DNA of 64,000 bases from Candidatus Omnitrophota bacterium. GTDB lineage: Bacteria > Omnitrophota > Gorgyraeia > JAGLLT01. Below the pieces are notes generated by a model that did not search any database, had not been told where the DNA came from, and saw nothing but the letters and a program-made list of their open reading frames with translations. Numbering within the stretch: the stretch's first letter is position 1; each line of letters starts with the position of its first letter. Location of the stretch: positions 34,381 to 98,380 of the forward strand of contig JAGLLT010000039.1 in the NCBI GenBank assembly GCA_023140385.1, written 5' to 3'. The translations under genes were made by a program, and so were the position numbers. Below are positions 6,943 to 58,581 of this stretch, one piece after another.

Positions 6943-6971
6943 GGCTGGACTGTTAAGATAAATGGTGGTTT

Positions 6972-10143: not shown

Positions 10144-10232
10144 TTTAATTTTCCCATTAGCGTGAAAGAAAGCCCCGAAGCCGCTCTTCCTTAGCTTAAG
10201 CAGGCCGGTAAAAAAAATTAATTAAAAGTTGT

Positions 10233-10262
10233 TGATTAAATATAGAAGGTGTTGTACAATAT
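10233..10262 (+). promoter_or_regulatory. Candidate promoter upstream of pilMN (TTGATT-17-TACAAT)
   Basis: Read from the sequence. Confidence 0.35.
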
Positions 10263-10309
10263 TACGGCGGGATTTGACTAACTTGAACTTTTAATAAACT
10301 GGTATATTT

Positions 10310-12744: not shown

Positions 12745-12756
12745 CCGGTAGGGCGA

Positions 12757-13458: not shown

Positions 13459-13515
13459 ATCGGGCGCTTGCAGTTTAATAAATTATTAGAGAAATATAAA
13501 AAAGGAGTTTTTATA

Positions 13516-14622: not shown

Positions 14623-14664
14623 ATTCAGCTATTATCAACCAAAACAACCTGTAGAGTGCAAGCT

Positions 14665-15858: not shown

Positions 15859-15859
15859 T

Positions 15860-31708: not shown

Positions 31709-31719
31709 GGAGTTATCAT

Positions 31720-34024: not shown

Positions 34025-35338
34025 TTGTTAAAAACATTTACCGGCGGCATCCGTCTCGCGGGACATAAAGAAGCGACCGCGAACAGCTCAATAGAAATCC
34101 CATCTTTACCCGAGCAGGTTATTATTCCTCTTATTCAGTATGGCGGCAGGTTGTGTGAACCATTAGTAAAAACCGGCGAGAGAGTAAAGGCCGGACAGCT
34201 TATCGGTTTTTCTCAAGACTCTTTGTCGGTTGCTGTGCACTCGAGCATTTCAGGAAAGGTGGCGCGGATAGGCGAGTTTGCTCATCCTGATTTTGAAAAG
34301 GCCAGGGCTATTTTGATAGAATCTGACGGGTTAGACGAAAAGGCGCGGGAGGTTTCGGAAAAAGATTATCAAAGTTTATCGAAGGAAGAATTATTAAATC
34401 GTATAAGAAATGCCGGAGTTGTAGGGATGGGCGGCGCTTCTTTTCCGACTCATGTTAAATTAAACCCGCCGCGTAATAAAAAGGTTAACTTTTTTGTCGT
34501 AAATATGTTTGAGTGTGAGCCCTATATAACTACCGATTATCGTTTAGCAATAGAAAGATGCGAAGAAATTTTATCCGGCGTAAATATTTTTTTAAAAATT
34601 CTTGAGGTAGAAACCGCCTATATTGCCATAGGGGCTAATAAAAAAGAGGCTCTGGATATTTTAAAAGAGAAGACCGCTAAATTTGAGCGGATAAAGATAG
34701 CGGCCCTTAAGCCAAAATTTCCTCAGGGTGAAGAAAAGTGTTTGATAAAGGCGGTGTTAAACAAAGAGGTTCCCCGCGGCAAACTGCCTTATGAGGCGGG
34801 GGCTATTGTTTGTAATCCCCAGACTATAATTACGGTTTATGAAGCTGTTTGTTTAGGCAAGCCTTTGTATGAAAAGGTGATAACGGTTACGGGAAAAGGT
34901 ATAAAAAAACCGGGGAATCTGAAGGTTAGAATTGGAACACTGTTAAAAGATATTATAGAGTATTCCGGCGGAGTATTTGAAGAGGAGATGGAGGTAATCT
35001 TTGGCGGGCCTATGATGGGGAGGGCGCAGACTGATATCAATGTGCCCGTTGTTAAAGGAACGTCGGGAATAATTTTTCTTCCCGCGAAAAGCTTAGACCT
35101 TTCGAAAGAAAGCGCCTGCATCAGGTGCGGCAGATGTGTTGAAGTCTGCCCTGTCAGGCTGCTTCCCCTGGAAATTAATAAGTTAGTAAAGAATAAGAAG
35201 TGGGAAAGATTAAACGCTTATCATATTTCTGAGTGTATGTTGTGCGGAGCCTGTGCTTATGTCTGTCCTTCCAAGATTCCTCTTGTGCAAAGATTAAAGC
35301 TGGGGCAGAAGATTACTAAAAGATTGCAAAAAAAGTAA
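34025..35338 (+). CDS. rnfC: Rnf/Rsx electron transport complex subunit C
   Basis: The N-terminus GGIRLAGHKE...GFSQDSLSVAVHSSISGKV and the NADH/FMN domain are present. Two 4Fe-4S motifs are CIRCGRCVEVCP and CMLCGACAYVCP. Confidence 0.8.
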   Translation: MLKTFTGGIRLAGHKEATANSSIEIPSLPEQVIIPLIQYGGRLCEPLVKTGERVKAGQLIGFSQDSLSVAVHSSISGKVARIGEFAHPDFEKARAILIESDGLDEKAREVSEKDYQSLSKEELLNRIRNAGVVGMGGASFPTHVKLNPPRNKKVNFFVVNMFECEPYITTDYRLAIERCEEILSGVNIFLKILEVETAYIAIGANKKEALDILKEKTAKFERIKIAALKPKFPQGEEKCLIKAVLNKEVPRGKLPYEAGAIVCNPQTIITVYEAVCLGKPLYEKVITVTGKGIKKPGNLKVRIGTLLKDIIEYSGGVFEEEMEVIFGGPMMGRAQTDINVPVVKGTSGIIFLPAKSLDLSKESACIRCGRCVEVCPVRLLPLEINKLVKNKKWERLNAYHISECMLCGACAYVCPSKIPLVQRLKLGQKITKRLQKK

Positions 35339-35411
35339 TATCAAAAGTAGTATGAAAAATCGTAAGGAAACCGAGTAATTTTAAAGGAGTTATATTTATT
35401 ATAAGGAGAGA

Positions 35412-35576
35412 GGGAAATCCTAAATACTAAATCCGAAACACTAAACAAATCCAAATGTCCAAAATACAAAATCCAAAACAGTTTAGAACATTTAGATTTT
35501 GAATTTAGAATTTGTTTAGAATTTAGAAATTAGGGCTTAGAGTTTTTAAACGTATAAAGGGTAAATAGTTTTGACA
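35412..35576. repeat. Intra-operon repeat element copy 1 (imperfect long palindrome + conserved tail gagtttttaaacgtataaagggtaaatagttttg)
   Basis: It shares the gggaaatcctaaatactaa head and the tail with 37699-37888. Internal arms ctaaat.../...atttag are inverted. Confidence 0.6.
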
Positions 35577-35578
35577 AT

Positions 35579-36547
35579 ATGCAAGAAACCGAACAGGAAG
35601 GCGAAATGAGTTTAAATCTAACTACCAATGAACCGCCGTACTTAAAAAGTAGTGATAATACAAGAAAGGTAATGCTGACTGTTATCGCGGCGCTTCTTCC
35701 CGCGGTTATTGCCGGTACCTATTTTTTCGGGCCCAGAGCTTTTTTATTAATTGTCGTTTGCGTAAGTACCTGCGTGGTTTCAGAGTTTTTAATTCAGAGG
35801 CTAAGAGGAGTTAAGACAACCATCGGAGATTTAAGCGCCGTGCTTACAGGTTTATTGCTGGCTCTGGTTTTACCTCCCGGACTGCCTCTCTGGGCGGCTG
35901 TTCTGGGCGCTGTGGTTTCGATATTTTTAGGTAAGCAGATTTTTGGAGGATTGGGCGCGAATATATTTAATCCCGCTTTAATAGGCAGAGCATTTCTAAC
36001 GGCTACCTTTCCTGTTATGATGACCGCCTGGACTAAGCCCTTTAGCCTGGAGGCTGTAACGACGGCTACACCCCTGGGACTGATGAAGTTTGAAGGTGTG
36101 GGAACATCGGTAAGCGCGCTTCTTATGGGAAACACAGCAGGCTGTATAGGTGAGACATCGGCCATAGCTTTAATTCTGGGAGGAATATTTCTTTTATTCA
36201 GGAAGGCGGCCGACTGGAGAATTCCCCTGGGGTATTTGAGCGCCGTAGCTGCTTGCTCCTTCCTTTTAAACTGTTTTAATCCGTCAAAATATCCTTCCGT
36301 GAACTTTGAAATTTTGGCGGGAGGGCTTTTAATAGGCGCTATCTTTATGGCTACTGATCCCGCGACCTCTCCCATTACGAAAAAGGGAAGATGGATATTT
36401 GCCGTAGGCTGCGGGTTGATAACTATAATTATCAGACGCTGGGGAGGACTGCCGGAAGGTGTTATGTATTCTATATTATTTATGAACGCTTTAAGGCCGT
36501 TAATAGACAGATATACCAGGCCTGTTTGTTTTGGAGGCGCGCTGTGA
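35579..36547 (+). CDS. rnfD: Rnf complex subunit D (NqrB-like)
   Basis: Polytopic membrane protein with the FMATDPATSP flavin-attachment motif. Confidence 0.85.
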   Translation: MQETEQEGEMSLNLTTNEPPYLKSSDNTRKVMLTVIAALLPAVIAGTYFFGPRAFLLIVVCVSTCVVSEFLIQRLRGVKTTIGDLSAVLTGLLLALVLPPGLPLWAAVLGAVVSIFLGKQIFGGLGANIFNPALIGRAFLTATFPVMMTAWTKPFSLEAVTTATPLGLMKFEGVGTSVSALLMGNTAGCIGETSAIALILGGIFLLFRKAADWRIPLGYLSAVAACSFLLNCFNPSKYPSVNFEILAGGLLIGAIFMATDPATSPITKKGRWIFAVGCGLITIIIRRWGGLPEGVMYSILFMNALRPLIDRYTRPVCFGGAL

Positions 36548-37104
36548 AAAAAGGTTTGAAAATAACCCTGACTCTTACTTTAATCGCGGTTTTATCAGGA
36601 GCAATTCTGGCAGAGGTATATAAAGTAACCGTTGAAGATATTAAGGCCAATCAGAAAAAGGAGATAGAGGAGGCTGTTTTTAGTGTTTTACCCGGGGCGA
36701 AAGAGTATAAAAGAGAGACCCGCGGTAGCCGGGAGTTTTTTAAATGTTTTGACGATAAAGCGGAGTTGCGCGGTATCGCCTTTGTGGCGGAAGGCATTGG
36801 TTATCAGGATATAATTAAGGTTGTGGTGGGAGTGGACAGCGGCCTGTCTAAAATTACGGGAATAAGAGTAATTGCCCACAATGAAACGCCCGGCCTGGGA
36901 GCAAAGATAAGCGAGGGTTGGTTTGAGGAGCAGTTTAAGGGCTTGTCTGCCGCGGTAAGACTGGATTTGGTTAAAGGTGAACCGGATAAAAAAAATCAGA
37001 TTCAGGCAATTACCGGGGCAACTATCTCCTCGCAGGCCTTGGTGGATATTATTAATAAAGAGATAGAGGATATCAAAAAGCATAAGGTAGGCAATTGTGA
37101 CTAA
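36544..37104 (+). CDS. rnfG: Rnf complex subunit G (FMN-binding)
   Basis: GTG start overlaps the rnfD stop. N-terminal TM helix and the FMN-binding motif ITGATISS. Confidence 0.8.
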   Translation: MKKGLKITLTLTLIAVLSGAILAEVYKVTVEDIKANQKKEIEEAVFSVLPGAKEYKRETRGSREFFKCFDDKAELRGIAFVAEGIGYQDIIKVVVGVDSGLSKITGIRVIAHNETPGLGAKISEGWFEEQFKGLSAAVRLDLVKGEPDKKNQIQAITGATISSQALVDIINKEIEDIKKHKVGNCD

Positions 37105-37711
37105 AACTCCGGTAATATTAAAAGATTTTGCTAAAGGGCTCTGGCAGGAAAATCCTGTATTCCGGCTTTTGATTGGTATGTGCCCTACCCTGGCAGTGAC
37201 TTCTCAGGCGCAAAACGGCCTTGCTATGGGTTTGGCCACATCCTTTACCCTGATTGCTTCAAGTACCATTGTTTCCATTTTCAGGAAACTGATTCCTAAA
37301 GAAGTAAGAATTCCTTCTTATATATTAATTATCGCTACTTTTGTAACCATTGTTTCTCTTTATTTACAGGCCAAATTTCCGGATATAAGCAAGGACCTGG
37401 GCCCTTATATACCTTTAATAATAGTTAACTGTCTCATCCTGGGGAGGCAGGAGGTCTTTGCCTCAAAAAATCCGACACATAGAGCCGCGGCTGACGCTTT
37501 AGGGATGGGACTGGGATTTACTATTTCCCTCGTAGCCCTGGGGATGGTGAGAGAACTGCTTGGCTCCGGAACTATCTTCTCCTTTAAAGTTTTAGGAGAC
37601 GGTTTTAGGCCGTGGATTATTATGCTGACCCCTCCCGGAGCTTTTTTAAGCCTGGGACTGATGCTGGGAATGATAAATATTATTGACAGGTTGTTGAAAG
37701 GGAAATCCTAA
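37097..37711 (+). CDS. rnfE: Rnf complex subunit E
   Basis: NCLILGRQEVFASKN and LTPPGAFLSLGLMLGM match the RnfE/RsxE pattern. Confidence 0.8.
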   Translation: MTKTPVILKDFAKGLWQENPVFRLLIGMCPTLAVTSQAQNGLAMGLATSFTLIASSTIVSIFRKLIPKEVRIPSYILIIATFVTIVSLYLQAKFPDISKDLGPYIPLIIVNCLILGRQEVFASKNPTHRAAADALGMGLGFTISLVALGMVRELLGSGTIFSFKVLGDGFRPWIIMLTPPGAFLSLGLMLGMINIIDRLLKGKS

Positions 37712-37888
37712 ATACTAAGCACTAAATACTAAACAAATCCAAATATCCAAAATACAAATGACCAAAACAAAGACACTTAAGGTTTATAACATTTGAGCAT
37801 TAGAATTTTGAAATTATTTAGGATTTAGATATTAGGATTTAGAGTTTGTTTAGAGTTTTTTAAACGTATAAAGGGTAAATAGTTTTGG
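37699..37888. repeat. Intra-operon repeat element copy 2 (starts within the last codons of rnfE)
   Basis: Same head and tail as copy 1. The central region is a divergent imperfect palindrome. Confidence 0.6.
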
Positions 37889-37918
37889 CAGTACGAAAAA
37901 AGGTGTGAAGGTTAAGAT

Positions 37919-38506
37919 ATGATAAAAGAGTTGATTTTAGTTTTTGTCGCGGCCGTGCTTGTAAATAATTTTGTTTTAAAGTACTTTTTAGGCATATGCC
38001 CCTTTCTGGGTGTATCTGATAATCTGCACTCTGCCGTTAGTATGGGTTTTGCCACAACCTTTGTGATGAGCATTACCGCGCCGGTTGCCTGGTGCATCAA
38101 ACATTTTGTCCTTGATAAATTGGGCCTGCCCTTTCTTGAGTACGTTTGTTTTATAATAGTCATAGCTTCTCTGGTGCAGTTTGTGGAGATGGTTATAAAG
38201 AAATTTTATCCGGCTTTGCACCAGGCTATGGGTATTTATCTGCCGCTGATTACGACTAACTGCGCTATACTCTTTATGGCCCTGCAGTTGGTTTTACGCG
38301 AGTATTCATTATTAAGAAGTATAGTTTTTGGTTTTGGTTCAGGCTTAGGCTTTACACTGGCTATTACCATTATGGCGGGAATCAGGGAAGAGATAGAGTT
38401 TTGTGATGTGCCCCGCTGTCTTAAGGGGCCGGGTATTACCCTGATCATCGCGGGCCTGCTGGCCTTAATCTTTGTAGGTTTAGGCGGGTTAATTAAGGTT
38501 AATTAA
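37919..38506 (+). CDS. rnfA: Rnf complex subunit A
   Basis: LILVFVAAVLVNNFVLKYFLGICPFLGVS is a canonical RnfA N-terminus. Confidence 0.85.
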   Translation: MIKELILVFVAAVLVNNFVLKYFLGICPFLGVSDNLHSAVSMGFATTFVMSITAPVAWCIKHFVLDKLGLPFLEYVCFIIVIASLVQFVEMVIKKFYPALHQAMGIYLPLITTNCAILFMALQLVLREYSLLRSIVFGFGSGLGFTLAITIMAGIREEIEFCDVPRCLKGPGITLIIAGLLALIFVGLGGLIKVN

Positions 38507-38540
38507 ATTTTTAGCATAACTAAAAGGACTTAAGTTTTCA

Positions 38541-38819
38541 ATGGAGAAAACTTTATTATCAATGGCGGTGATGGGCGGTTTGGCAGCCCTTCTGGGAATA
38601 ATATTGAGTGCCGCCTACAGCAAGTTAAAGGTTGAGGAAGATCCCGGAGTTGAGAAAATAACTGAACTCCTGCCCGGCGTCAATTGCGGCGCCTGCGGTT
38701 TTGCCAGCTGTGAGGAGTTTGCCCGACAGCTTGTCAGGAAAGAAACGGATATTGAAAAATGCCGAATTACTTTTAGAAACAAAGAGGTTGTTATGAAGAT
38801 TAAAAATTTGACCCCTTAA
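38541..38819 (+). CDS. rnfB: Rnf complex subunit B, N-terminal domain only (membrane anchor + Cys-cluster, no ferredoxin domains)
   Basis: 92 aa. [17 protein letters not shown] matches the RnfB N-terminal cluster. No ferredoxin CxxCxxCxxxCP motifs are present, and no downstream remnant exists because the pyrR leader follows. Confidence 0.65.
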
Positions 38820-38830
38820 TCTTAAAAGAC

Positions 38831-38859
38831 TTGACAAAAAGAACTGATATGGTAATATA
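38831..38859 (+). promoter_or_regulatory. Candidate promoter of the pyr operon (TTGACA-16/17-TAATAT)
   Basis: Read from the sequence. Confidence 0.4.
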
Positions 38860-38875
38860 TCGTATAAGAGAATAA

Positions 38876-38991
38876 GTCCTTTTAATCCGGCCCGGCGAGG
38901 CTGGCAAGGGAGAAAAAAGATGTTAAGATTACGCAAAATGGGAATTAAAAAAACAAAACCTACCTCGCGGCAAGAGGCGGGTTATTTTTTT
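38876..38991 (+). promoter_or_regulatory. PyrR-binding attenuator (binding loop AAUCCGGCCCGGCGAGGCUGGCAAGGGAG) with a downstream GC hairpin + U-run terminator and an overlapping 37-codon leader ORF (38920-39031)
   Basis: UCC...GAGGCU resembles the PyrR binding-loop consensus. The hairpin cctcgc/gcgggtt is followed by ttattttttt. The element sits immediately upstream of pyrR. Confidence 0.5.
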
Positions 38992-39019
38992 GCCTTTTTA
39001 AAAAAACAGGATACGGGAT

Positions 39020-39571
39020 ATGTCTTTAAATGATAACAAGATAATTATGGACAAGGAGCAAATTAAGAGGGCTTTGTTTCGTATTAGCCATGAGGTTCTT
39101 GAAAAGAACAAGGGGACTAAAAATCTGGCTATAATAGGAATCAGAAACAAAGGGGCTTATCTGGCCGCGAGAATGGCCGATTATATTAAAGAAATAGACA
39201 GCAAGGCCGTTCCAGTTGGGATACTTGACATTACACTTTATAGAGACGATTTGACTACAATTGCCTGGCAGCCGGTAGTCCGTAAAACGGAAATTGATTT
39301 TGATATTACCGGCAAGAATATTATTTTAGTTGACGATGTCCTCTTTACGGGCCGTACAATCAGATGCGCCCTGGATGCCTTGATAGACTTTGGCAGGCCC
39401 AAAAATATACAGCTCGCTATCCTTATAGACAGGGGCCACAGGGAACTTCCTATACGAGCCGACTATGTGGGTAAAAATGTGCCCACTTCGTTAAATGAAA
39501 CGGTTGATGTTAGCTTAATAGGGGCGGACGCGGTAGATAAAGTAAGTGTCAGGAAGGTGGGTAAGCAATGA
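39020..39571 (+). CDS. pyrR: Pyrimidine operon regulator / uracil phosphoribosyltransferase PyrR
   Basis: PRTase motif [18 protein letters not shown]. The protein is 183 aa. Confidence 0.9.
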
Positions 39572-40512
39572 GTGATTGGAAAAAGCGCGACCTGCTTACG
39601 CTTGAGTCTTTGGATAAAGATGAGATCAATCACATCCTACGTACGGCCGAGTCTTTTAAGGAGATATCCACCAGGTCTATAAAGAAGGTGCCGGCGCTAA
39701 GAGGGAAAACCATTGCCTCTCTGTTTTTTGAAGCCTCAACGCGCACACGAACCTCTTTTGAGCTGGCCGCCAAAAGACTTTCAGCTGACGTAGTGAGTAT
39801 ACATTCGTCAAGCAGTTCTGTCTTAAAAGGCGAGAGCCTGATAGATACTGCCCGTAATATTGAGGCTATGCGCGTAGACGGAATTATAATAAGGCACTCT
39901 TCGGCCGGCGCGCCCCGCCTTTTATCCGCGAAGGTAAGTGTTCCGGTAATAAATGCCGGTGACGGAGCCCATGAGCATCCTACTCAGGGCTTACTCGATA
40001 TTTTTACCATAAAGCAGAAGAAAAAAAAGATAGAGGGATTGAAGGTGAGTATTGTCGGAGATATTTTGCACTCGCGGGTAGCCAGAAGTAATATCTGGGG
40101 ATTAAGCAAATTGGGGGCGAAAGTCTGCGTTTGCGGCCCGGCCACCCTCTTGCCGCCCTGCATTGAAAAGTTTCCTGTTAGGGTAGTCACCAACCTGAAG
40201 GAGGCCCTGGCGGGCGCTGATGTGGTAATCGCCCTCAGGATACAGCTTGAGAGGCAGAAGGAAAGGTTTTTTCCTACTTTAAGAGAGTACTCAAGGGAGT
40301 ATGGTATAGACAAGGAGAATATTAAGTTAGCAAAAAGGGATGTCTTAATTATGCATCCGGGGCCGGTTAACCGCGGCATTGAACTTTCTCAGGATGTTAT
40401 AGATGGGCCGCGTTCGGTTATCCTTGAGCAGGTAACCAACGGTGTGGCTGTCAGAATGGCTGTTTTGTATTTGCTATTACAAAAAGAGGAAACGAATGAG
40501 TCTATTAGTTAA
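39568..40512 (+). CDS. pyrB: Aspartate carbamoyltransferase catalytic subunit
   Basis: STRTR and HPTQ motifs. Confidence 0.9.
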
Positions 40513-41779
40513 AGGAGCGAGAGTAATAAGCCCCGGGGACAATCTTGATAAAGAGATTGATATTCTAATAAAAAAAGGTGTTATTGAGAAAATCGCGAAG
40601 GGCATAAAAGCTCCGAAGGCAAAAATAATTAACGCTAAAGGTAAAGTCGCTGTTCCCGGTTTAATAGATATGCACACCCATCTGAGAGAACCCGGCAGAG
40701 AAGATAAGGAAAGTCTGTATACCGGTTCACTGGCAGCGGTAGCCGGCGGTTTTACGGCAGTTGCCTGTATGGCCAACACTAATCCGCCTCTGGATTCTGA
40801 GCAGGATATGGAGTATATCTATACTGAAGCAAAGAAAATCGGTTTAGTAGATATCCTTCCTATAGCCGCGGTTACTAAAAATATGGAACAGAAGGAACTT
40901 ACGGAAGCGGCTAAGCTAAAGAAGGCCGGCGCTGTGGCTCTTTCCGAGGACGGGCACCCTATCTTAAATAGTAGTTTTATGAGGCACGCTCTTGAGTATG
41001 CCAATATGTACGGTTTAATTATTATCTGCCACTGTGAAGATAAAGCGCTTTCTGCCGGCGGCGTTATGAACGAAGGCTATATGAGCAGTTTGTTGGGATT
41101 AAAGGGCATACCCGCCGAAGCCGAAGCAATAATAGTTAGCAGGGATATTAATTTGGCCAGGAGAACATCCGGGCGTATTCATATAGCTCATGTCAGCTGC
41201 AAAGAGTCTGTCGCTTTAATAAGGCAGGCAAAGAAAGAGGGTGTAAAGATTACGGCTGAGACCTGCCCCCATTATTTTAGCCTTTCTGATGAAGAGCTAA
41301 AAGAGTATGATGCTAATTTTAAGGTTAATCCTCCCTTAAGGGCCAAAGAGGACATAGCCGCTATAAAGGAGGCTTTGGCTGATAACACCATAGATATTAT
41401 TGTCTCCGACCACGCGCCGCATCTGGAAAGCGAGAAGGAGCTGGAATTTGATAGAGCTCCTTTTGGTATGACCGGACTTGAAACTTCGCTGGGTGTGTCC
41501 TACGGCCTGGTTGAGGAAAAGGTGTTATCTTTAGGGGAGTTGGTAAATAAAATGTCGGTAAGGCCTGCCGGGATTTTTGGATTAGATAAAGGCTCTTTAA
41601 AGGAAGGTGACGCCGCCGATATAACCGTTATAGATCTTTCAACATCCTGGGTGGTTAAAAAGGAAAACTTTAAGTCTAAAGGCGGCAACTCCGCCTTTAT
41701 CGGTAAAGAACTAAAAGCCAGGGCAACCGAAGTAATTTTCTCAGGGCGCCTGGTAATGGAGAACGGAAAAGTTTTATAA
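40496..41779 (+). CDS. pyrC: Dihydroorotase
   Basis: [10 protein letters not shown] metal-binding motif. The likely start is ATG 40496 ([11 protein letters not shown]), overlapping the pyrB end. Confidence 0.85.
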
Positions 41780-41796
41780 ACACAGGAGGTAATTGG

Positions 41797-42087
41797 ATGA
41801 AAAAAGTTACGCGGACGATGGTTATTTTTGCTTTAGCCGGCGCCATTCTCGTTTCTAATCTGGGCTGTATCATGGGAACACAGAACAGAGTAAAATACAG
41901 GGAGCTCGCGGGCAAGCAAAAGGCTCAAGCTGAGGAGTGGCTCCATAGCGCTAACCTATTATGTAATGTTAAAGATTACAACTTCGCCCTGGAGTATTAT
42001 AAAAAAGTAATTACCTACTATCCGTATACCGAGTATGCTAAAAAGGCTCAGGCTAAAATCATAGAGATAGAGAAAATGACAGATTGA
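41797..42087 (+). CDS. Small lipoprotein (lipobox LGC), hypothetical
   Basis: MKKVTRTMVIFALAGAILVSNLGC signal peptide with lipobox. Confidence 0.4.
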   Translation: MKKVTRTMVIFALAGAILVSNLGCIMGTQNRVKYRELAGKQKAQAEEWLHSANLLCNVKDYNFALEYYKKVITYYPYTEYAKKAQAKIIEIEKMTD

Positions 42088-42094
42088 CCGGCCG

Positions 42095-43324
42095 ATGGAG
42101 ATAGTTGCTGACTTTCATGTCCATTCAAAGTATTCAAGGGCAACCAGCAAGAATATGGACATTGACCATTTAAGTATGGCTGCCGCGATTAAAGGAGTAA
42201 ACCTTTTAGGCACGGGGGACTTTACTCATCCTCAGTGGTTTTTAGAGTTAAAAAATAAGCTGGAGTTCAGGTCGTACGGTATCTATGATTACAAGGGTAT
42301 CAGCTATATCCTGACCGCCGAGGTAAGCAATATCTACCATAAGGCGGGCAGAACAAGAAGGATTCACAATCTTATTTTCGCTCCCGGCTTTAAGGTTGTC
42401 AAAGAGATAAATGCCGCGCTTGAGGAGTATGGCAGTTTATTCTCTGACGGCAGGCCCATATTAAAGCTTGACTCAAAAGAGATGGTTAAAATTATTCTTT
42501 CAATTAGTGAAGACTGTATAATCATCCCGGCTCACATCTGGACTCCCTGGTTTGGCCTGTTGGGTTCGAAGACAGGCTTTGATTCTCTTGAAGAGTGTTT
42601 TGAGGAGGAGATCGAAAATATCTATGCCTTGGAAACCGGTTTGAGCAGTGACCCGGCAATGAATTGGCGCCTGAGTAAACTTGACAGGTTTACCTTGATT
42701 TCAAATTCTGACGCTCATTCACCGATGAACATTGCCAGAGAGGCCAACGTTTTTAATTCAAAGTTAGATTACAGTGAGTTAATAAATATAATTAAGGAGA
42801 AAGACAATAAAAAATTTAGTTATACGGTGGAATTTTTTCCGCAGGAAGGAAAGTATCACTATGACGGCCACAGAAACTGCGGCCGGTGCCTGAACCCCAA
42901 AGAGTCAATAAGCTTAAACAATAAGTGCCCGAAGTGCGGCCGGGAGGTAACGGTGGGCGTTATGCACAGGGTAGAAAAATTGAGTGACAGGGAGGAGGGA
43001 TACAGCCGGGACAGCTTTATTCCTTTTAAGAACCTGATACCTCTGAGAGAAATAGTTTCTGAGGTAAAGAATATTGGAGTTAACTCCCGGACGGTTGAGA
43101 ATGAATATAAAAGTATCATCGGCAGATTTAAATCGGAGTTTAACGTTTTGGTGAGGGCTAAAGAAGAGGAGCTGCGTAGTTCTCTGCCGTATAAGATAGC
43201 TGAAGGTATAATGAGGGTTAGGCGGAGGCAGGTGGAGATTTGTCCCGGGTATGACGGTGAGTATGGGAAGATAAAGATTTTTAATGAGAAGGAGAAAAAA
43301 GAGGAGCAGTTAAGCCTTTTTTGA
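42095..43324 (+). CDS. PHP-domain nuclease with a C-terminal zinc ribbon, EndoQ-like (TIGR00375-type)
   Basis: N-terminal DFHVHSKYSRATS PHP motif. Further H/D motifs and CGRCL...CPKCGREVTVGVMHR. About 409 aa. Confidence 0.5.
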   Translation: MEIVADFHVHSKYSRATSKNMDIDHLSMAAAIKGVNLLGTGDFTHPQWFLELKNKLEFRSYGIYDYKGISYILTAEVSNIYHKAGRTRRIHNLIFAPGFKVVKEINAALEEYGSLFSDGRPILKLDSKEMVKIILSISEDCIIIPAHIWTPWFGLLGSKTGFDSLEECFEEEIENIYALETGLSSDPAMNWRLSKLDRFTLISNSDAHSPMNIAREANVFNSKLDYSELINIIKEKDNKKFSYTVEFFPQEGKYHYDGHRNCGRCLNPKESISLNNKCPKCGREVTVGVMHRVEKLSDREEGYSRDSFIPFKNLIPLREIVSEVKNIGVNSRTVENEYKSIIGRFKSEFNVLVRAKEEELRSSLPYKIAEGIMRVRRRQVEICPGYDGEYGKIKIFNEKEKKEEQLSLF

Positions 43325-43328
43325 TAAA

Positions 43329-44114
43329 ATGATGATGCATCAGGGAAACTTCAAAATCATTAGTAATGAAAAAACTGCCGGCGGCTGTTTCAGGCTGAGG
43401 GTTATGGCGCCGGAGGCCGCGGAGGAAGCGCGGCCGGGACAGTTTGTTCACTTGCGCGTACAGCAGGAAATTGATAAACCTTTTTTAAGAAGGCCATTCG
43501 CGGTTTGTGATGTAAAAGACAATGGTGTGCTTGAAATTTTATACAAGGTCAGGGGGCGGGGCACCTCCCTGCTTAGTGAAAAAAAAGAGGGAGGCTTGCT
43601 TGATGTAATCGGGCCGCTGGGAAATGGTTTTGATTGTAACGTCGAACCCAAAAGGGCATTAGTGGTGGCGGGTGGCATAGGAATAGCGCCTCTGATTTTT
43701 TTATCCCGCAAGCTCCTTGACGCGGGCAGAGAGGTTGTATTTATGAGGGGAGCGGTTACTGCCGGGGACGTCCTGTGCTGCCGCGAACTTAAAAATATGA
43801 AGCTAAAGGTAATTACGGCTACTGAAGACGGTTCAGGGGGTATAAAGTCTAAAATTACAGAGGTGCTCGAAAATTATTTGCGGAAAGAGAAAGATAAAGA
43901 GATGGAGATTTTTGCCGCCGGCCCAAGGCCTATGCTAAGGGTTGTTGCCCGGTTAAGCGGGGAGTATAAGATAGAGAGCCAGGTTAGTATGGATGAGATG
44001 ATGGCTTGTGGAGTAGGAGTTTGTTTGGGGTGCGCTGTAATGACCAGAAACGGTTATAAACTGGCCTGCAAGGATGGCCCGGTTTTTAAGGCAGGTGATA
44101 TAATTTGGGAGTAG
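43329..44114 (+). CDS. pyrK: Dihydroorotate dehydrogenase electron-transfer subunit
   Basis: FNR-like FAD/NAD-binding fold and a C-terminal 2Fe-2S CGVGVCLGCAV. Confidence 0.85.
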   Translation: MMMHQGNFKIISNEKTAGGCFRLRVMAPEAAEEARPGQFVHLRVQQEIDKPFLRRPFAVCDVKDNGVLEILYKVRGRGTSLLSEKKEGGLLDVIGPLGNGFDCNVEPKRALVVAGGIGIAPLIFLSRKLLDAGREVVFMRGAVTAGDVLCCRELKNMKLKVITATEDGSGGIKSKITEVLENYLRKEKDKEMEIFAAGPRPMLRVVARLSGEYKIESQVSMDEMMACGVGVCLGCAVMTRNGYKLACKDGPVFKAGDIIWE

Positions 44115-45028
44115 ATTTATCGGTTACATTAGGCAAGATTAAAATGGCCAATCCGGTTATGGTCTCCTCGGGAACTTTTGGCTGCGGCTCAGAGTACGGG
44201 GATTTAGTGGATGTAAACAGTCTGGGGGCTATAGTGACCAAGACGGTTACCTTGAAGCCGCGTTCCGGCAACCCGCCTCCCAGAATAGCGGAGTCCGCCT
44301 CCGGTATGCTAAATGCTATAGGATTAGAAAACATCGGCATAGACCGCTTTATTGAGGAAAAACTTCCTTACTTAAGAAGCTTAAGAGTACCGGTTATTAT
44401 TAGTATTGCCGGCGATACTGTAGAAGAGTATGTCTGTTTAGCCGAACGTTTAAATAAAGAAAAAGCTGCCGCCCTGGAGTTGAATATTTCCTGTCCTAAC
44501 GTTAAATCGAAAAAAGGGCGCATGTTCTCCCAGGACAAGGAGGGGGTTAAGGAGGTGGTGTCTGCCGCAAGGAGGCAAACTAAAGCTACCCTTATTGTTA
44601 AATTGTCACCCAATGTAACTGATATAAAAGAGATAGCCATGGCCGCGGAAGAAGCGGGAGCGGATGTTATTTCGCTGGTGAACACTTTTGGCGGTATGTT
44701 GGTGGATATAGAAAAAAAAGTTCCAAAATTGGGCAATGTTACCGGCGGTCTGAGCGGTCCGGCCATCAAACCCATCGCGCTTAGAATGGTTTACGAAGCG
44801 GCCTCTTGTGTTGATATTCCCGTTGTCGGCCAGGGGGGCATTATGAACTGGGAAGACGCGCTGGAATTTATTATCGTGGGAGCGGATGCTGTTTCAATCG
44901 GTACGGCAAATTTTATTGATCCGCGAAGTACCTTCAAAATATTAGAGGGTATTAAAAAATATATGGCTGCCGGAGGGCTTAAAGAGATAAGCCGGCTCGT
45001 TGGAACTTTAAAGATAAGCAGGGAGTAA
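44105..45028 (+). CDS. pyrD: Dihydroorotate dehydrogenase catalytic subunit (class 1B)
   Basis: TIM-barrel FMN enzyme. The motifs NISCPN and NTFGG are present. Confidence 0.9.
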   Translation: MGVDLSVTLGKIKMANPVMVSSGTFGCGSEYGDLVDVNSLGAIVTKTVTLKPRSGNPPPRIAESASGMLNAIGLENIGIDRFIEEKLPYLRSLRVPVIISIAGDTVEEYVCLAERLNKEKAAALELNISCPNVKSKKGRMFSQDKEGVKEVVSAARRQTKATLIVKLSPNVTDIKEIAMAAEEAGADVISLVNTFGGMLVDIEKKVPKLGNVTGGLSGPAIKPIALRMVYEAASCVDIPVVGQGGIMNWEDALEFIIVGADAVSIGTANFIDPRSTFKILEGIKKYMAAGGLKEISRLVGTLKISRE

Positions 45029-45029
45029 T

Positions 45030-45740
45030 ATGAAGTCAAAACTTATTGTGGCTTTAGACGTTGATACTATAAAAGAGGCTGAGAACCTTTTGAAGAAACT
45101 TCATAAGGAAGTAGAAATTTTTAAGATCGGCCCTCAGTTATTTACAAGATACGGCCCCCGGATTATAAAAACAGTTCATAAATTTAAGCGCGGGGTTTTT
45201 TTAGATCTTAAGCTTCATGATATTCCTAATACTGTTGCCAATACGGCTACCCAGATTACAAGATTAAAAGTTTTTATGTTTACGGTTCATACGCAAGGCG
45301 GTTCGGAAATGATGCGGAAGGCTCAGGGGGCTGCCGCGGAAGAGGCCGGGAAAATGGGGATAAAGCCCCCGGTTATTTTAGGAGTAACGGTGCTCTCAAG
45401 CTTTAATAGAAAAGACTTAAGGGAATTAAATGTAAGCGGCGCGGTTGATGAACAGGTTGCGCGCCTTGTAAGGCTGGCCAGGAAGGCGGGCATAGGAGGA
45501 GTGGTACTTTCACCTAAAGAAGCGGCCGGAGCGAGAAAGATTGCCGGCAGAGATTTTATTATTGTTTGTCCCGGCATAAGGCCGGCGGGCTATAAAAAGG
45601 ATGATCAGAAAAGAACAGCCGGTCCCAAAAAGGCAATTGAGAGCGGAGCTGATTATATAGTTGTCGGGCGGCCTGTAATTAAAGCGGCCAGGCCCGGGGA
45701 GGCGGCCAGGGAGATATTGGCAGAAATTAAAGGAGATTAA
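45030..45740 (+). CDS. pyrF: Orotidine 5'-phosphate decarboxylase
   Basis: LIVALDV...DLKLHDIPNT. Confidence 0.9.
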   Translation: MKSKLIVALDVDTIKEAENLLKKLHKEVEIFKIGPQLFTRYGPRIIKTVHKFKRGVFLDLKLHDIPNTVANTATQITRLKVFMFTVHTQGGSEMMRKAQGAAAEEAGKMGIKPPVILGVTVLSSFNRKDLRELNVSGAVDEQVARLVRLARKAGIGGVVLSPKEAAGARKIAGRDFIIVCPGIRPAGYKKDDQKRTAGPKKAIESGADYIVVGRPVIKAARPGEAAREILAEIKGD

Positions 45741-45746
45741 CCGAGT

Positions 45747-46316
45747 ATGACCGAGAAAGAAATTCTGGATATATTTATCGACTGCGGCGCCTTAATAGAA
45801 GGGCATTTTCTACTTACCTCGGGACTGCACTCAAAAAAGTACTTTCAAAAGAGTTTAGTCCTGCAGTATCCTCAATATACTGAAAAACTTTGCCGCCAGC
45901 TTAGTAAAAAATTCGCTTCCAAAAAGGTAGATGTGGTTATCGCTCCGGCCGTCGGCGCTATTGTTCTCTCTTATCAGTTAGCATCCATTTTTAAGTGCCG
46001 GTCTATCTTTACAGAAAGGCTTGACGGTAAGATGCTTCTGAGAAGGGATTTTAAGATTGCCACCGGCGAAAAGGTGCTTATCGCCGAGGACATTGTGACT
46101 ACCGGCGGTTCGGTTATGGAGTTGGTGGAGCTGGTTCGCGGAGAGGGGGGCGAAGTGATTGGAGTTTGTGCCCTGGTAGACAGGTCAAAGAAGAAAAATA
46201 AGTTTGAAGATGTAGAGTTCAAAAGCCTCCTCAGGCTGAATCTGAAAACCTACAAACCTCAAGAGTGCCCCATGTGCAAAAAAGGCCTGCCGCTCATAAA
46301 GCATGGAAGCAGGTAA
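45747..46316 (+). CDS. pyrE: Orotate phosphoribosyltransferase
   Basis: PRTase motif VLIAEDIVTTGGS. Confidence 0.9.
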   Translation: MTEKEILDIFIDCGALIEGHFLLTSGLHSKKYFQKSLVLQYPQYTEKLCRQLSKKFASKKVDVVIAPAVGAIVLSYQLASIFKCRSIFTERLDGKMLLRRDFKIATGEKVLIAEDIVTTGGSVMELVELVRGEGGEVIGVCALVDRSKKKNKFEDVEFKSLLRLNLKTYKPQECPMCKKGLPLIKHGSR

Positions 46317-46467: not shown

Positions 46468-46561
46468 AGTACTTTGTAATCAAATAACTTGACAGTTATT
46501 TTGATAGACGTATAATGATGTTATTGCTTTAGTTGTTACTAATTTGAAAGGGATAGTTACA

Positions 46562-47437
46562 TTGCTTAAAAGTATGACCGGCTATGGGAGCGGTAAGGTA
46601 AGCACGGCTTCGGGGCTGGTGACGGTTGAAATTAGAAGTTTGAATTACCGCTACCTGGAGGTTATTGTCCGCCTGCCGGAAAACATTCTGTGTTTTGAAA
46701 AGAAGGTAAAACAGCTTGCCCAGCAGAAAATCAGGCGGGGACGCGTTAATATTAATTTAAATTTTGAAAGTCATAACGAAGATAACTTCAGGATTGAAAT
46801 TAATAAAAAGCTGGCCACCGGTTACTTAAATGGCCTCGAAAAGCTTAAAAAGGAGTTTAAATTCAAGGAGTCAATAACTCTGCCTCAGCTTTTATCTTTT
46901 CCCGATGTCCTGGTATACAAAAGAAAAAATACCTACCTGGAACGGGAGTGGCCGAGAATAAAAAAGGCTGTAGGGGCCGCCCTTGACAGTTTAATTAAGT
47001 CACGCGGCCTTGAAGGCAGGTTTATGTATAATGACCTTTATAAAAGGACGCGGATTATTGAGAGCTTGCTGTTGAAGATTGAAAAAAGGATACCGCTGAT
47101 GCTTAATAAATATAAAAAGCGACTTTTAAGACGTTTTCAGCGGCCTCATATGAAAACAGTAAAGAGCGAAAGGCTGGAGTCTGACTTTGCTTCTTTTGTC
47201 CAGGGCTGTGATGTTAGTGAAGAGATTACCCGCGTTAAAGCCCACGTAAAAAATTTCAAACAGGTCTTAAAAGCAAATGAAGAAGTGGGAAAGAAACTGG
47301 ACTTTATTGCTCAGGAGTTATCGCGCGAAGCCAATACCATTGCCGCCAAAACCCAGGATTTTACGGTATCCAAAAGTGTAATTGAGATTAAGGCTGAAAT
47401 AGAGAAGATAAGAGAACAGGCGCAAAACGTAGAATGA
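46562..47437 (+). CDS. yicC: YicC-family protein
   Basis: The [12 protein letters not shown]-terminus matches the YicC start when TTG 46562 is used, and an AAAGGGA RBS lies upstream. ATG 46544 is an alternative start. Confidence 0.7.
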
Positions 47438-47697
47438 AAAAAAAGGCCGGAGCGGGCTGCAGCAGACGCTTCATCAATATCGGTTTTGATAACGTAGTTT
47501 CTATAGATAAGATAGTGGCTATACTTTTACCCCAGGCGGCTCCGATAAAAAGGATTAGAGAAGAGGCGCGCCGGCGCAATAAACTAATAGATGCCACCAA
47601 TGGCAGGAGAACACGCGCCGTGATCATTACCAACAGTGATCATATAGTGCTTTCCGCTATTCAGCCCGATACTATAACCAACAGAATAGAAGGATAG
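47434..47697 (+). CDS. remA: DUF370 / RemA-like small DNA-binding regulator
   Basis: [10 protein letters not shown]...[29 protein letters not shown] aligns with RemA/YlzA. The yicC-remA-gmk synteny matches that in Firmicutes. Confidence 0.7.
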
Positions 47698-47714
47698 GTT
47701 CTTCATCTTTTGAT

Positions 47715-48284
47715 ATGCGAGACAGAGGCAGGCTATTTATAATATCAGCTCCTTCAGGGAGCGGTAAAACTACCTTAGAAAAGATGCTTTTACGCGCCGG
47801 GCTGAATTTGGAAAAATCAGTCTCTGTTACTACCCGCCGGCCGAGAAAGGGCGAAAAGAACAGCCGTGACTACTATTTTATATCAGAAAGTGATTTTTTA
47901 AAAAAGAGAGAAAACGATGATTTTCTGGAGTGGGCGAAAGTTTTTGACAGCTATTACGCTACGCCGAAAGCAAAGATTGAAGAAGCGCTTAACAAGGGGA
48001 AAAACGTAATTTTGAGTATTGACGTGCAGGGAGCAAAGCAGGTTAAAAGGAGTCATCCGGAAGCTGTGCTGATATTTCTGAAGGCGCCTGACGCTGAAGC
48101 CTTGCGGGCAAGGTTAACGGAGAGGCTGACCAATACGCCTCGAGAGATTGAAAGAAGGCTTCAGACTGCCGTGAAGGAGCTGGCTCAAAGCGGATTTTAC
48201 GACTACGTAGTTATAAATGACGATTTAAATAGAGCGTTTGAGGAGTTAAGAGGTATAATTCAGGATAACTTAAAGAGGTGTTAA
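47715..48284 (+). CDS. gmk: Guanylate kinase
   Basis: ISAPSGSGKTTL P-loop. Confidence 0.9.
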   Translation: MRDRGRLFIISAPSGSGKTTLEKMLLRAGLNLEKSVSVTTRRPRKGEKNSRDYYFISESDFLKKRENDDFLEWAKVFDSYYATPKAKIEEALNKGKNVILSIDVQGAKQVKRSHPEAVLIFLKAPDAEALRARLTERLTNTPREIERRLQTAVKELAQSGFYDYVVINDDLNRAFEELRGIIQDNLKRC

Positions 48285-48285
48285 A

Positions 48286-48489
48286 ATGATTGATGTATCA
48301 CTTGAGGAGTTGTTAAAAAAGACCGGGAGTTTGTATAAGTTGGTTAATCTGGCTTCCAAAAGAGCGCTTCAGCTAAATGAAGGGGCGACTGCCATGGTTA
48401 AGAGTGATGAAAAGATGAAGTATCCCGCCATAGCTTTAAAGGAAATTTTAGAAGGTAAAATAGACTATAAGGTCAAAAGTGGTAAGTAA
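48286..48489 (+). CDS. rpoZ: RNA polymerase omega subunit
   Basis: KYKLVNLASKRALQL is an RpoZ-like segment. Confidence 0.85.
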   Translation: MIDVSLEELLKKTGSLYKLVNLASKRALQLNEGATAMVKSDEKMKYPAIALKEILEGKIDYKVKSGK

Positions 48490-48621
48490 TATATAGGTTC
48501 TTTCTTGTTTAAGTTGGACGAAATAACCTGATTACAGCGATACCCTTACGGGCACAAGTTAAAAAACCGATTACATCGAGTTTATTGATTAATTTTTATG
48601 TTCTTAGAAAGGTAAGCTTGT

Positions 48622-49161
48622 ATGTCTAAAAAAGATAAAAAAGTGCTTGTTGGAATTTGCGGAGGTATAGCCTGTTATAAAGCGGCTGAACTGGTCAGGT
48701 CGCTAAGAAAGCAGGGCTATAGCGTAACCTGTCTGATGACTAAAGAGGCGGCTTGTTTTATTACCCCGCTCACGCTTCAGCATCTTTCCGGCAATAAAGT
48801 TTTTATTGACCTTTTTAAGCCGGCAGAAAATATTGAACCTGCTCATATCAGCCTGGCTGAGTGGGCCGGTAAAATTGTAATTATTCCGGCCACCTGCCAC
48901 ATAATAGCCAAGCTGGCCGCCGGCCTCTGTGATGATATTGTCTCCCTCACCGTTTTATCTTCATCTGCCCCAGTCTTGATTTGTCCGGCGATGCATGAGA
49001 AGATGTATAAAAAAGAGGTTACGGCCAAGAATATTGTTGTACTTAAAAAAAGAGGCTTTAAATTTGTCGGTCCCGTAAAAGGCGAGCTATTAAATGGAAA
49101 AAAGGCGATGGGCCGCCTTGAAAACCTCGACATTATCCTTAAAAGAATAAAGAGTCTGTAA
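48622..49161 (+). CDS. coaC: Phosphopantothenoylcysteine decarboxylase (stand-alone CoaC flavoprotein)
   Basis: KVLVGICGGIACYKAAELVR flavoprotein motif. Confidence 0.85.
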   Translation: MSKKDKKVLVGICGGIACYKAAELVRSLRKQGYSVTCLMTKEAACFITPLTLQHLSGNKVFIDLFKPAENIEPAHISLAEWAGKIVIIPATCHIIAKLAAGLCDDIVSLTVLSSSAPVLICPAMHEKMYKKEVTAKNIVVLKKRGFKFVGPVKGELLNGKKAMGRLENLDIILKRIKSL

Positions 49162-49162
49162 A

Positions 49163-49837
49163 ATGGCTTCCCAAACCCCCCTGAAGATTGTTATTACAGC
49201 AGGCCCGACCCGCGAACCCCTTGACGCGGTACGGTTTATGTCAAATTACTCAACCGGCACCATTGGCTATCAAATGGCAAGAGAGGCCATAAGGAGAGGC
49301 CATAAGGTTGTTCTTATAAGCGGGCCGGTCAGCCTTAAAGCACCTGAGAAGGCCATAGTGGTGAAGGTAGAGTCTGCCAGAGAAATGTATTTGGCGGTAA
49401 ACAAGCACTTTAAATTATGCCACTGCCTGATTATGTCAGCCGCCGTCTCAGACTACCGCCCCAAAAAAATTATTTCCGGCAAGTTAAAAAAGATAAGAAA
49501 GAACCTTTCTTTAGATTTAGTTCGTAACCCCGATATCCTTAAACAGCTGGCAAAGATAAAAAAAGATAGAATAACCGTAGGCTTTGCTCTTGAGGCCTCC
49601 AATCTTATCTCCAATGCTTCCAATAAGTTAAGAGAAAAAAACCTTGATTTAATTATAGCCAATAAAAAAACTAAAGGCCCAAGCCCCTTTGGAAAAGAGA
49701 AGCCGAGCGGTTTTTTTATAGATAACAGGCTAAAAGCCGAAAGATTTACCAAAATCCCGAAAAAAGCGCTGGCCGGCCTGATTATTGACAAAGTCGAAAA
49801 GTTATGGTATACTTATCACAGAAGTAAAAGGGGATAA
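49163..49837 (+). CDS. coaB: Phosphopantothenate-cysteine ligase (stand-alone CoaB)
   Basis: ITAGPTREPLDAVRFMSNYSTGTIG, the CoaB signature. Confidence 0.85.
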   Translation: MASQTPLKIVITAGPTREPLDAVRFMSNYSTGTIGYQMAREAIRRGHKVVLISGPVSLKAPEKAIVVKVESAREMYLAVNKHFKLCHCLIMSAAVSDYRPKKIISGKLKKIRKNLSLDLVRNPDILKQLAKIKKDRITVGFALEASNLISNASNKLREKNLDLIIANKKTKGPSPFGKEKPSGFFIDNRLKAERFTKIPKKALAGLIIDKVEKLWYTYHRSKRG

Positions 49838-58333: not shown

Positions 58334-58581
58334 TAGAGAAAGTCCAACCTGACCGCTATTGCAAAAATGCTTGCTTTTGAGCTTGGATTGTGATATATTT
58401 AGTGTAGATAATAATTTCCCTGCTATGTACGTGATGAGCAGATAGACTTGAGCCAACACAGTTTGCCCGGGAACCTAACTTCATACTGCCCGCGGGCGGA
58501 AATGAGAAGGTACCCACTTAGTAGACCGGGTTCAAGCCTATCACGCACGCACGGCATCCGCGGGGATTTCTTTTTAGGCCT

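Follow-up and report, generated by a model that had tools for sequence, protein, structure and literature searches.

An endonuclease Q family gene embedded in the pyrimidine biosynthesis cluster of Candidatus Omnitrophota

We analyzed a 64,000-nucleotide (nt) stretch of Candidatus Omnitrophota DNA (GenBank assembly GCA_023140385.1, contig JAGLLT010000039.1, positions 34,381 to 98,380 of the forward strand; hereafter the window), in which nine tightly packed + strand genes at 39020–46316 run pyrR-pyrB-pyrC, a 96-amino acid (aa) open reading frame (ORF), a 409-aa ORF, and pyrK-pyrD-pyrF-pyrE. Sequence comparison and structure prediction strongly support identification of the 409-aa product as a true bacterial endonuclease Q (EndoQ). 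The pyr-linked arrangement recurs in related lineages, in Omnitrophota only, where the sequences give the appearance of one early insertion of EndoQ behind pyrR-B-C followed by vertical descent.

The pyr cluster and its EndoQ-family protein

All nine genes were assigned with Pfam and NCBIfam models (Table 1). An earlier, sequence-only reading of this DNA had described a pyr order of R-B-C-K-D-F-E with tight spacing, two non-pyr genes between pyrC and pyrK, and no carAB, and each of these points was upheld. Junctions within the cluster are overlaps of 4–17 nt or gaps of 1–17 nt, and the spacers that lead from pyrC through the 96-aa gene and the EndoQ gene to pyrK are 17, 7, and 4 nt. The pyrC start is consistent with that of relatives. 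Because tblastn with CarA and CarB of relatives as queries gave no match within the window, and no window ORF is longer than 899 aa, carAB is truly absent from the window; it has since been lost from the pyrC-pyrK position in the window's own lineage. The ratios of nonsynonymous to synonymous substitution against a 93%-identical relative (L086) were 0.13 for EndoQ and 0.16 for the 96-aa gene, similar to those of the flanking pyr genes (0.08–0.14); both inserted ORFs are therefore real genes, and an ORF artefact was rejected.

Table 1. Predicted features of the pyr cluster, in window coordinates
Feature	Position	Strand	Basis
Promoter-like site (TTGACA, 16 nt, TG-n-TAATAT)	38831..38858	+	Consensus pattern match only, 10/12 plus extended -10 TG
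PyrR-binding attenuator leader (binding loop, terminator hairpin, U-run)	38875..38992	+	RF00515, full model
pyrR (regulator/uracil phosphoribosyltransferase)	39020..39571	+	NF003549, 245.7 bits vs. cut-off 138
pyrB (aspartate carbamoyltransferase)	39568..40512	+	NF002032, 418.9 bits vs. cut-off 263
pyrC (dihydroorotase)	40496..41779	+	TIGR00857, 441 bits vs. cut-off 279
96-aa probable lipoprotein, one TPR/BamD-like helical hairpin	41797..42087	+	Signal peptide, invariant Cys24
Lesion-specific endonuclease of the EndoQ family (409 aa; PHP domain, Zn-binding domain, helical domain at the C terminus)	42095..43324	+	Sequence, fold, residues
Zinc-knuckle ligands H259, C262, C278, C281 (HCCC)	42869..42937	+	Alignment to P. 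furiosus C249, C252, C268, C271
C-terminal QLSLF, beta-clamp-binding pentapeptide	43307..43321	+	Read directly in sequence
pyrK (dihydroorotate dehydrogenase electron-transfer subunit)	43329..44114	+	NF000798, 189 bits; PF10418 match
pyrD (dihydroorotate dehydrogenase 1B)	44105..45028	+	NF005574, 395.7 bits vs. cut-off 269
pyrF (orotidine monophosphate decarboxylase)	45030..45740	+	NF001273, 262 bits vs. cut-off 193
pyrE (orotate phosphoribosyltransferase)	45747..46316	+	TIGR01367, 219.7 bits vs. cut-off 150

The 409-aa protein, which begins MEIVADFHVHS, aligned end to end with the EndoQ model TIGR00375 of NCBIfam (positions 2–374 of 374, E = 7e-56), yet its score of 190.2 bits falls short of the curated cut-off, 326.6; the protein belongs to a diverged subfamily. 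When all PDB sequences were searched with phmmer, entries for P. furiosus EndoQ (PfuEndoQ) were the sole matches (5zb8_A, E = 5.4e-55, query residues 3–401 against chain residues 3–388; 7k30, E = 3e-54), with 32–34% identity. The closest homologs, at 57–93% identity, all come from Candidatus Omnitrophota, and close relatives carry the NCBI name "endonuclease Q family protein" and a precomputed match to PF27218 (MJ0043_C); our own Pfam search returned nothing for the 409-aa protein, the copy used apparently lacking PF27218. An AlphaFold2 model generated from 41 homologs had a predicted local distance difference test score (pLDDT) of 88.6 and a predicted template modeling (TM) score of 0.87. Foldseek matched the model to 5zb8 with a TM score of 0.87–0.89 and to the DNA complex 7k30 with 0.83–0.86, over 402–406 columns, and the next-best PHP folds reached 0.35 or less. 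The resemblance to EndoQ that had been proposed from sequence alone therefore stands. That proposal would have been refuted by homology to an unrelated PHP family, with histidinol phosphatase as the example given; such an assignment was excluded, the histidinol phosphatase 2yxo matching the window model at E = 0.39 and a TM score of 0.21.

Residues known from the PfuEndoQ structures are also retained. The catalytic metals of PfuEndoQ are bound by H8, H10, E76, H84, H139, and D193, with H195 conserved beside the site, and the lesion pocket is formed by T142, E167, G169, L170, and N191 (Miyazono et al., PMC5961232). The counterparts of the first set in the window protein are H8, H10, E76, H91, H147, D206, and H208, all invariant in the 85 sequences aligned. 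In the pocket, the counterparts are T150, E180, G182, L183, and N204; all 85 sequences keep the residues equivalent to Pfu T142, E167, and G169, whereas 84 keep that of L170 and 80 that of N191. If the enzyme works as its homologs do, a deaminated or missing base would be flipped into this pocket beside the metal site, and the PHP-domain zinc site would then nick the strand immediately 5' of deoxyuridine (dU), deoxyinosine, deoxyxanthosine, or an apurinic/apyrimidinic site.

The sequence-only reading had described a PHP domain and a C-terminal CPKCGR zinc ribbon. Both elements are present, but the ribbon is central (residues 278–283 of 409) and is followed by a helical domain and then by a clamp-binding tail. 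Three of the zinc ligands (C262, C278, and C281) are retained, and His259 replaces Pfu Cys249. Since histidine occupies this first ligand position in 84 of 85 family members, the zinc site of the subfamily is an HCCC variant. The protein ends in QLSLF, a textbook bacterial beta-clamp-binding pentapeptide that, by homology, would tether EndoQ to the beta sliding clamp. A strict QhxhF-type tail was read in 50 of 85 loci, and most of the others end in a looser QxxLF; among bacterial homologs, almost every one has a tail of the QxxLF type. The tail has low pLDDT in the AlphaFold2 model and is probably flexible. A PCNA-interacting peptide (PIP) box in archaeal EndoQ, stimulation by PCNA, and a clamp-binding consensus in bacterial homologs have been published (PMC4858679), so the motif is confirmatory and not new. 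A ligase could complete repair after nicking together with DNA polymerase I, whose gene lies at window positions 19090–21789 and includes a 5'–3' exonuclease domain.

Three loci from metagenome-assembled genomes (MAGs) labeled Micrarchaeota or Aenigmatarchaeota (DPANN; L029, L047, and L071) encode members of the same EndoQ subfamily with 52–53% identity. Their tails are PIP-box-like (QRGLGEYL, QKSLDEFF, and QKRLDSFL, respectively), compared with QLxLF in bacteria; judged from these tails, the clamp motif appears to have been exchanged in the archaeal loci to suit the clamp of the host.

EndoQ loci in Omnitrophota and in other phyla

A scan of GTDB with one genome per species yielded at least 544 EndoQ relatives, from which the best 80 loci were kept and searched by tblastn with the window pyr proteins. 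Genes for pyrimidine biosynthesis adjoin EndoQ in 18 of the 80, each of which has either an Omnitrophota title or only a vague MAG title. The pyrR-B-C genes lie immediately upstream of EndoQ in 16 of these 18 loci, with a pyrC-EndoQ gap of 9–22 nt in nine of the 16. In two of the 18 the contig begins at EndoQ and continues with pyrK-D(-F-E), and L026 has only the downstream part of the pyr cluster. Homolog look-ups added the pyr-linked loci L001, L003, L004, L086, and L087, all of Omnitrophota type. In a neighbor-joining tree of 85 EndoQ sequences, whose backbone is star-like and poorly resolved, the pyr-linked members fall in adjacent groups, which suggests that they are monophyletic.

The gene orders of these relatives share a conserved core, pyrR-B-C then EndoQ, and both the region 3' of EndoQ and the cluster flanks are rearranged among Omnitrophota. 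L001 and L087 read rnf, pyrR-B-C, lipoprotein, EndoQ, carA-carB, pyrK-D-F-E; L064 likewise has carAB between EndoQ and pyrK, and L086 has the same order as L001 and L087 without carAB. L003 and L004 read pyrR-B-C, Mut7-C, EndoQ, flavodoxin-like, tRNA, SLOG/LOG-like, carB, (YjbQ), Fpg, pyrK, where Mut7-C is annotated in L004 and is an uncalled region matching Mut7-C in L003. The slot between pyrC and EndoQ varies, holding a lipoprotein gene, a Mut7-C domain gene, genes for other secreted proteins, or nothing.

Further genes were seen in these clusters. At least eight Omnitrophota relatives have, between carB and pyrK, an fpg/mutM gene with Fapy_DNA_glyco, H2TH, and zf-FPG domains (L003, 14151–14951; L004, 13146–13946; also L006, L007, L011, L013, L015, and L026), and the same stretch of relatives carries flavodoxin-like, SLOG cluster-4/LOG-like, YjbQ, and PEMT-like methyltransferase genes. 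The window has no fpg, flavodoxin-like, SLOG/LOG-like, YjbQ, or PEMT-like gene. A tRNA follows EndoQ, or EndoQ and the flavodoxin-like gene, in one Omnitrophota clade (L003, 8740–8811; L004, 8847–8918; L006, 11311–11382; L013, 11185–11256; L015, 11715–11786), where its placement probably marks the 3' end of a pyrR-B-C-EndoQ transcription unit.

The 96-aa gene in the pyrC-EndoQ slot of the window has an AGGAGG ribosome-binding site 7 nt upstream of its ATG. Its product had been called a lipoprotein and probably is one: the protein has a predicted signal peptide with a hydrophobic N terminus ending VSNLGC, and Cys24 is invariant in three aligned orthologs, but the lipobox N-L-G-C is atypical, with a non-standard Asn at -3. 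Two of the three orthologs have a standard lipobox (L001, GLSC; L064, VQGC). The predicted helical hairpin is TPR/BamD/YbgF-like, with family matches below cut-off (TPR_1, E = 7e-4; BamD model TIGR03302, E = 2.4e-8). Orthologs with 46–93% identity occupy the identical slot of L001, L064, L086, and L087, and a database of 5.8 billion proteins holds seven clusters of the protein, all from Kappaea-like Omnitrophota. It is a real, lineage-restricted protein, probably of the envelope, and has no evident tie to pyrimidines or repair.

Variation was also observed around this gene. In L086, approximately 380 bp (7322–7702) replaces the 17-nt spacer between pyrC and the lipoprotein gene and carries many direct and inverted copies of GGATTAAG / CTTAATCC; from its sequence, it looks like a small repeat or an insertion resembling a miniature inverted-repeat transposable element within the operon. 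In the high-GC, Omnitrophota-type loci L046 (8437–9533) and L025 (8933–9990), the pyrC-EndoQ slot contains two secreted-type genes, one for a secreted protein of approximately 225–250 aa and one for a 111–123-aa signal-peptide protein with a TPR-like hairpin. The latter has 20% identity to the window lipoprotein in L046 (pairwise E = 5e-6) and no detectable similarity to it in L025; these proteins may be its distant counterpart.

Outside Omnitrophota, EndoQ had no pyr gene within reach in any of 61 loci; in 35 of them, each flank spans 3 kb or more. These loci come from Patescibacteria, WOR-3, Thermodesulfobacteriota, Nitrospirota, Chloroflexota, Aminicenantes, DPANN, and others, and clustering of neighbor genes found no universal EndoQ partner among them. 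EndoQ is fused N-terminally to a full UvrD/PcrA-type helicase in L067, L072, L075, L078, and L080, from Chloroflexota, Rhodothermaceae, Desulfobacterales, and similar MAGs; the encoded proteins, 1086–1165 aa for complete ORFs (for example, L080, 10001–13498), still end in QLxLF. Such fusions probably explain the legacy "DNA helicase UvrD" names on stand-alone homologs. A family-X DNA polymerase (PolX) with a PHP domain lies two to four genes from EndoQ in L032, L040, L044, L049, and L059, mostly Patescibacteria. A HIT-family hydrolase of 160 aa adjoins EndoQ in L024, L038, L043, L053, L055, L061, and L085, from WOR-3, Cloacimonadota, and vaguely titled MAGs. PolX and the HIT hydrolase may be downstream partners of EndoQ, and the UvrD fusions and PolX neighbors speak for a role of the subfamily in repair.

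Transcription of the cluster and the proposed link between repair and pyrimidine synthesis

A promoter-like site and a probable PyrR-binding attenuator leader precede pyrR. The RF00515 match scored 46.1 bits (E = 1.8e-5 in a 301-nt search), below the gathering score of 54, and a separate scan found a terminator-like hairpin at 38964–38981 followed by a T-run. In relatives, PyrR loops were scored by cmscan after two regular expressions had been dropped for missing most loci, including L036; the RF00515 element was found directly upstream of pyrR in L001, L087, L003, L013, L009, and L006 (41–49 bits) and in L036 (54.5 bits). The window scan found no terminator-like site between pyrC and pyrK. 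Such sites were not enriched in the window (14 found vs. 9.2 expected, SD 3.1), and promoter-like matches were modestly above the shuffled expectation (22 found vs. 12.6, SD 3.7). A perfect consensus promoter at 46489–46516, ahead of the next gene yicC, marks the predicted end of the pyr unit. Co-transcription of the inserted genes is plausible because the gaps are 4–17 nt, there is no internal terminator signal, and a promoter and a PyrR attenuator are predicted upstream; EndoQ and the lipoprotein gene are likely to be transcribed with the pyr genes from one promoter under PyrR attenuator control. The sequence-only reading had assumed this co-transcription, with which the gaps, promoter-like site, and attenuator agree, and we still infer it.

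Alternatively, EndoQ and the lipoprotein gene could form an independent unit that starts from an internal promoter in or after pyrC, with pyrK-E then read through or restarted, so that the embedding would be positional and not co-regulated. Weak + strand promoter-like matches at 40998–41025, 42076–42105, and 42468–42495 would allow such a start, pyrC and EndoQ are 82–172 nt apart in L006, L007, and L023, and the repeat-rich insert parts pyrC from the lipoprotein gene in L086. However, these matches are 9/12, lie within coding sequence, and belong to a set only modestly larger than in shuffled sequence, the spacers in the window are very short, and nine relatives also keep pyrC and EndoQ within 9–22 nt. 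We consider an independent unit improbable.

The sequence-only reading had gone further and took co-transcription with UMP biosynthesis to suggest that the state of the pyrimidine pool is linked to repair of uracil in DNA. Such a link is conjectural. The gene linkage is absent from every other phylum sampled, apparently arose by a single insertion, and lies among approximately 60 unrelated genes on one strand. As same-strand genes and short gaps are the norm in this genome, the embedding alone is a weakened basis for inferring function, and the one-phylum linkage, the one insertion, and the co-directional genes fit trapped synteny at least as well as coupling. Together with the many unrelated inserts that the cluster has tolerated, they lead us to favor, with moderate confidence, trapped synteny with expression generically matched to growth or nucleotide demand. 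In the form seen in relatives, the EndoQ gene and the small lineage-specific lipoprotein gene are inserted where pyrC meets carA in a pyr operon of the Bacillus type. The pyr-EndoQ linkage would have arisen once, early in Omnitrophota, and would have been inherited vertically since. EndoQ would be a "trapped" passenger that gains expression matched to growth and nucleotide demand, and no dedicated circuit sensing uracil or the pyrimidine pool would involve it. Unrelated genes likewise persist in ribosomal-protein operons.

Several observations weigh against this reading or its parts: the TIGR00375 and RF00515 matches below their thresholds, several weak 9/12 promoter matches that would permit transcription to start within pyrC or within the lipoprotein gene, the survival of pyrC-EndoQ adjacency to approximately 45–50% PyrC identity amid reshuffled surroundings, and the presence of a second base-repair gene, fpg, in the same cluster of many relatives. 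The last two keep alive an adaptive coupling, in which EndoQ was placed under the UMP/UTP-sensing PyrR attenuator so that removal of uracil and hypoxanthine tracks the pyrimidine state. Removal would increase at low pyrimidine pools or high de novo flux, conditions in which the uracil load would grow through an imbalance of dUTP and dTTP or through exposure of single-stranded DNA. Eight loci share the PyrR attenuator ahead of the operon; the place of EndoQ directly behind pyrC has outlasted deep divergence, although carAB, pyrKDFE, and the flanks have moved; and the stretch that holds Fpg/MutM in at least eight relatives also holds a putative nucleotide-processing gene of the SLOG/LOG type. 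Against coupling, linkage in one phylum, probably from one event, counts as a single observation, the cluster also takes unrelated inserts (lipoprotein, Mut7-C, flavodoxin, YjbQ, PEMT-like methyltransferase, and tRNA), and higher EndoQ at low UMP has no established connection to uracil load. Adaptive coupling is therefore, in our judgment, a doubtful explanation. We are similarly hesitant about its broadest form, that Omnitrophota wired base-damage repair (clamp-tethered EndoQ, and Fpg in many lineages) to PyrR-sensed pyrimidine flux, which is rather unlikely. We know of no bacterium for which such regulatory coupling of repair and the nucleotide pool has been described; if true, EndoQ would be the first dU/hypoxanthine repair nuclease under a riboswitch-like attenuator responsive to pyrimidine nucleotides, and homeostasis of the deoxynucleotide pool would be linked to repair in streamlined bacteria.

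The location in a biosynthetic operon, and the occurrence of PHP domains in phosphatases such as histidinol phosphatase, could also point to a metabolic phosphoesterase of pyrimidine metabolism, for example a recruited nucleotide phosphatase. This can hardly be credited, because all three EndoQ domains, including the zinc-binding and helical DNA-binding domains, are matched at full length, the clamp-binding tail is present, metabolic PHP enzymes match only weakly in fold, and other phyla have members of this subfamily fused to a UvrD helicase. A metabolic PHP phosphatase was rejected on these grounds.

Surroundings of the cluster and comparison with known systems

The pyr cluster lies in a 63-kb run of housekeeping genes, nearly all on the + strand. 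Window positions 1–62895 are essentially all +, and the minus-strand ORFs that do not overlap a + ORF are three small ones at 63090–63943 with no Pfam match. GC skew is positive across the profiled 36–50 kb stretch. A large type II secretion system/type IV pilus-like cluster occupies 40–17023 (+), which includes genes for three T2SSE ATPases and one T2SSF platform protein, pilM, at least seven pseudopilin-like genes whose products have N-methylation motifs, and tandem secretin genes at 14656–15858 and 15860–17023, followed by two tandem Peptidase_MA_2 genes. The window also holds polA, coaE, rho, prfA, prmC, murA, trmD, rplS, tRNAs, thrS-infC-rplT-pheST, rarA, lpxK, and a lipid A acyltransferase gene. 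A 6S RNA (RF00013, 83.2 bits) was found at 58414–58570 (+), between pheT and a rarA/mgsA-like AAA+ gene.

Directly 3' of pyrE lie yicC-remA-gmk-rpoZ-coaC-coaB (46544–49837, +), with coaBC split into two ORFs (48622–49161 and 49163–49837). We take this order to resemble the ylo region of B. subtilis, which there is downstream of, and not adjacent to, the pyr operon. The yicC-coaB order is an ancient one, kept without obvious functional reason. Upstream of the cluster are an FTCD_C-domain (cyclodeaminase-like) gene, folD, and MTHFR at 29297–33649 (+), and panB, a DRTGG-domain gene, and rnfCDGEAB at 34025–38819 (+); these folate/Wood-Ljungdahl and rnf genes fit the acetogenic/Rnf metabolism described for some Omnitrophota (PMC10066038).

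The nearest characterized system is P. furiosus EndoQ (PF1551; PDB: 5ZB8 and 7K30–7K33), with which the window protein shares the PHP, zinc-binding, and C-terminal helical architecture, identical metal-ligand and lesion-pocket residues, and a sliding-clamp peptide at the extreme C terminus. The two differ in the zinc site (HCCC in the window protein, C4 in PfuEndoQ), in the tail (QLSLF compared with an archaeal PIP box), in a 7-residue insertion after E76 in the window protein (residues 79–85), and in host and context, the window gene belonging to a mesophilic bacterium of approximately 44% GC and being embedded in a pyr operon. Activity has been demonstrated for EndoQ of Bacillus pumilus and B. 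subtilis, according to the articles that cite that work (Shiraishi et al. 2017, cited in PMC5961232 and PMC4858679), and a clamp-binding consensus has been noted at the C terminus of bacterial homologs. The literature describes EndoQ as largely archaeal and bacterial EndoQ as rare and confined to a few groups. The description is outdated, because the species-level relatives found here, at least 544, span many uncultivated phyla.

Full-text literature searches did not find EndoQ linked with Omnitrophota or with pyr operons. EndoQ itself, bacterial EndoQ activity, and the clamp motifs are already known; the phylum-wide pyr-operon context is unreported.

The Bacillus pyr operon has the order pyrR-pyrP-pyrB-pyrC-pyrAA-pyrAB-pyrK-pyrD-pyrF-pyrE. 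L001, L064, and L087 match it in the order R-B-C-(carA-carB)-K-D-F-E, and the window cluster likewise begins with an equivalog-level PyrR match, behind a probable RF00515-type leader with a predicted terminator. It differs from the Bacillus operon in that pyrP is missing and a single attenuator was detected, in the Omnitrophota lipoprotein and EndoQ genes inserted between pyrC and carA, and in the loss of carAB from the operon in the window and L086.

The UvrD-fused, PolX-linked, and HIT-linked EndoQ proteins of other phyla belong to the same subfamily as the window protein, with 47–58% identity, the HCCC site, and a QxxLF tail. Their contexts are overtly repair-related for UvrD and PolX, less clearly so for HIT, and have no pyr genes near, whereas the window EndoQ is pyr-embedded. 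Hundreds of uncultivated bacterial species carry EndoQ in the form of a distinct subfamily with an HCCC zinc site and a QLxLF tail, and its phylum-specific contexts (pyr operon, UvrD fusion, and PolX/HIT) suggest partners for the steps that follow nicking by bacterial EndoQ.

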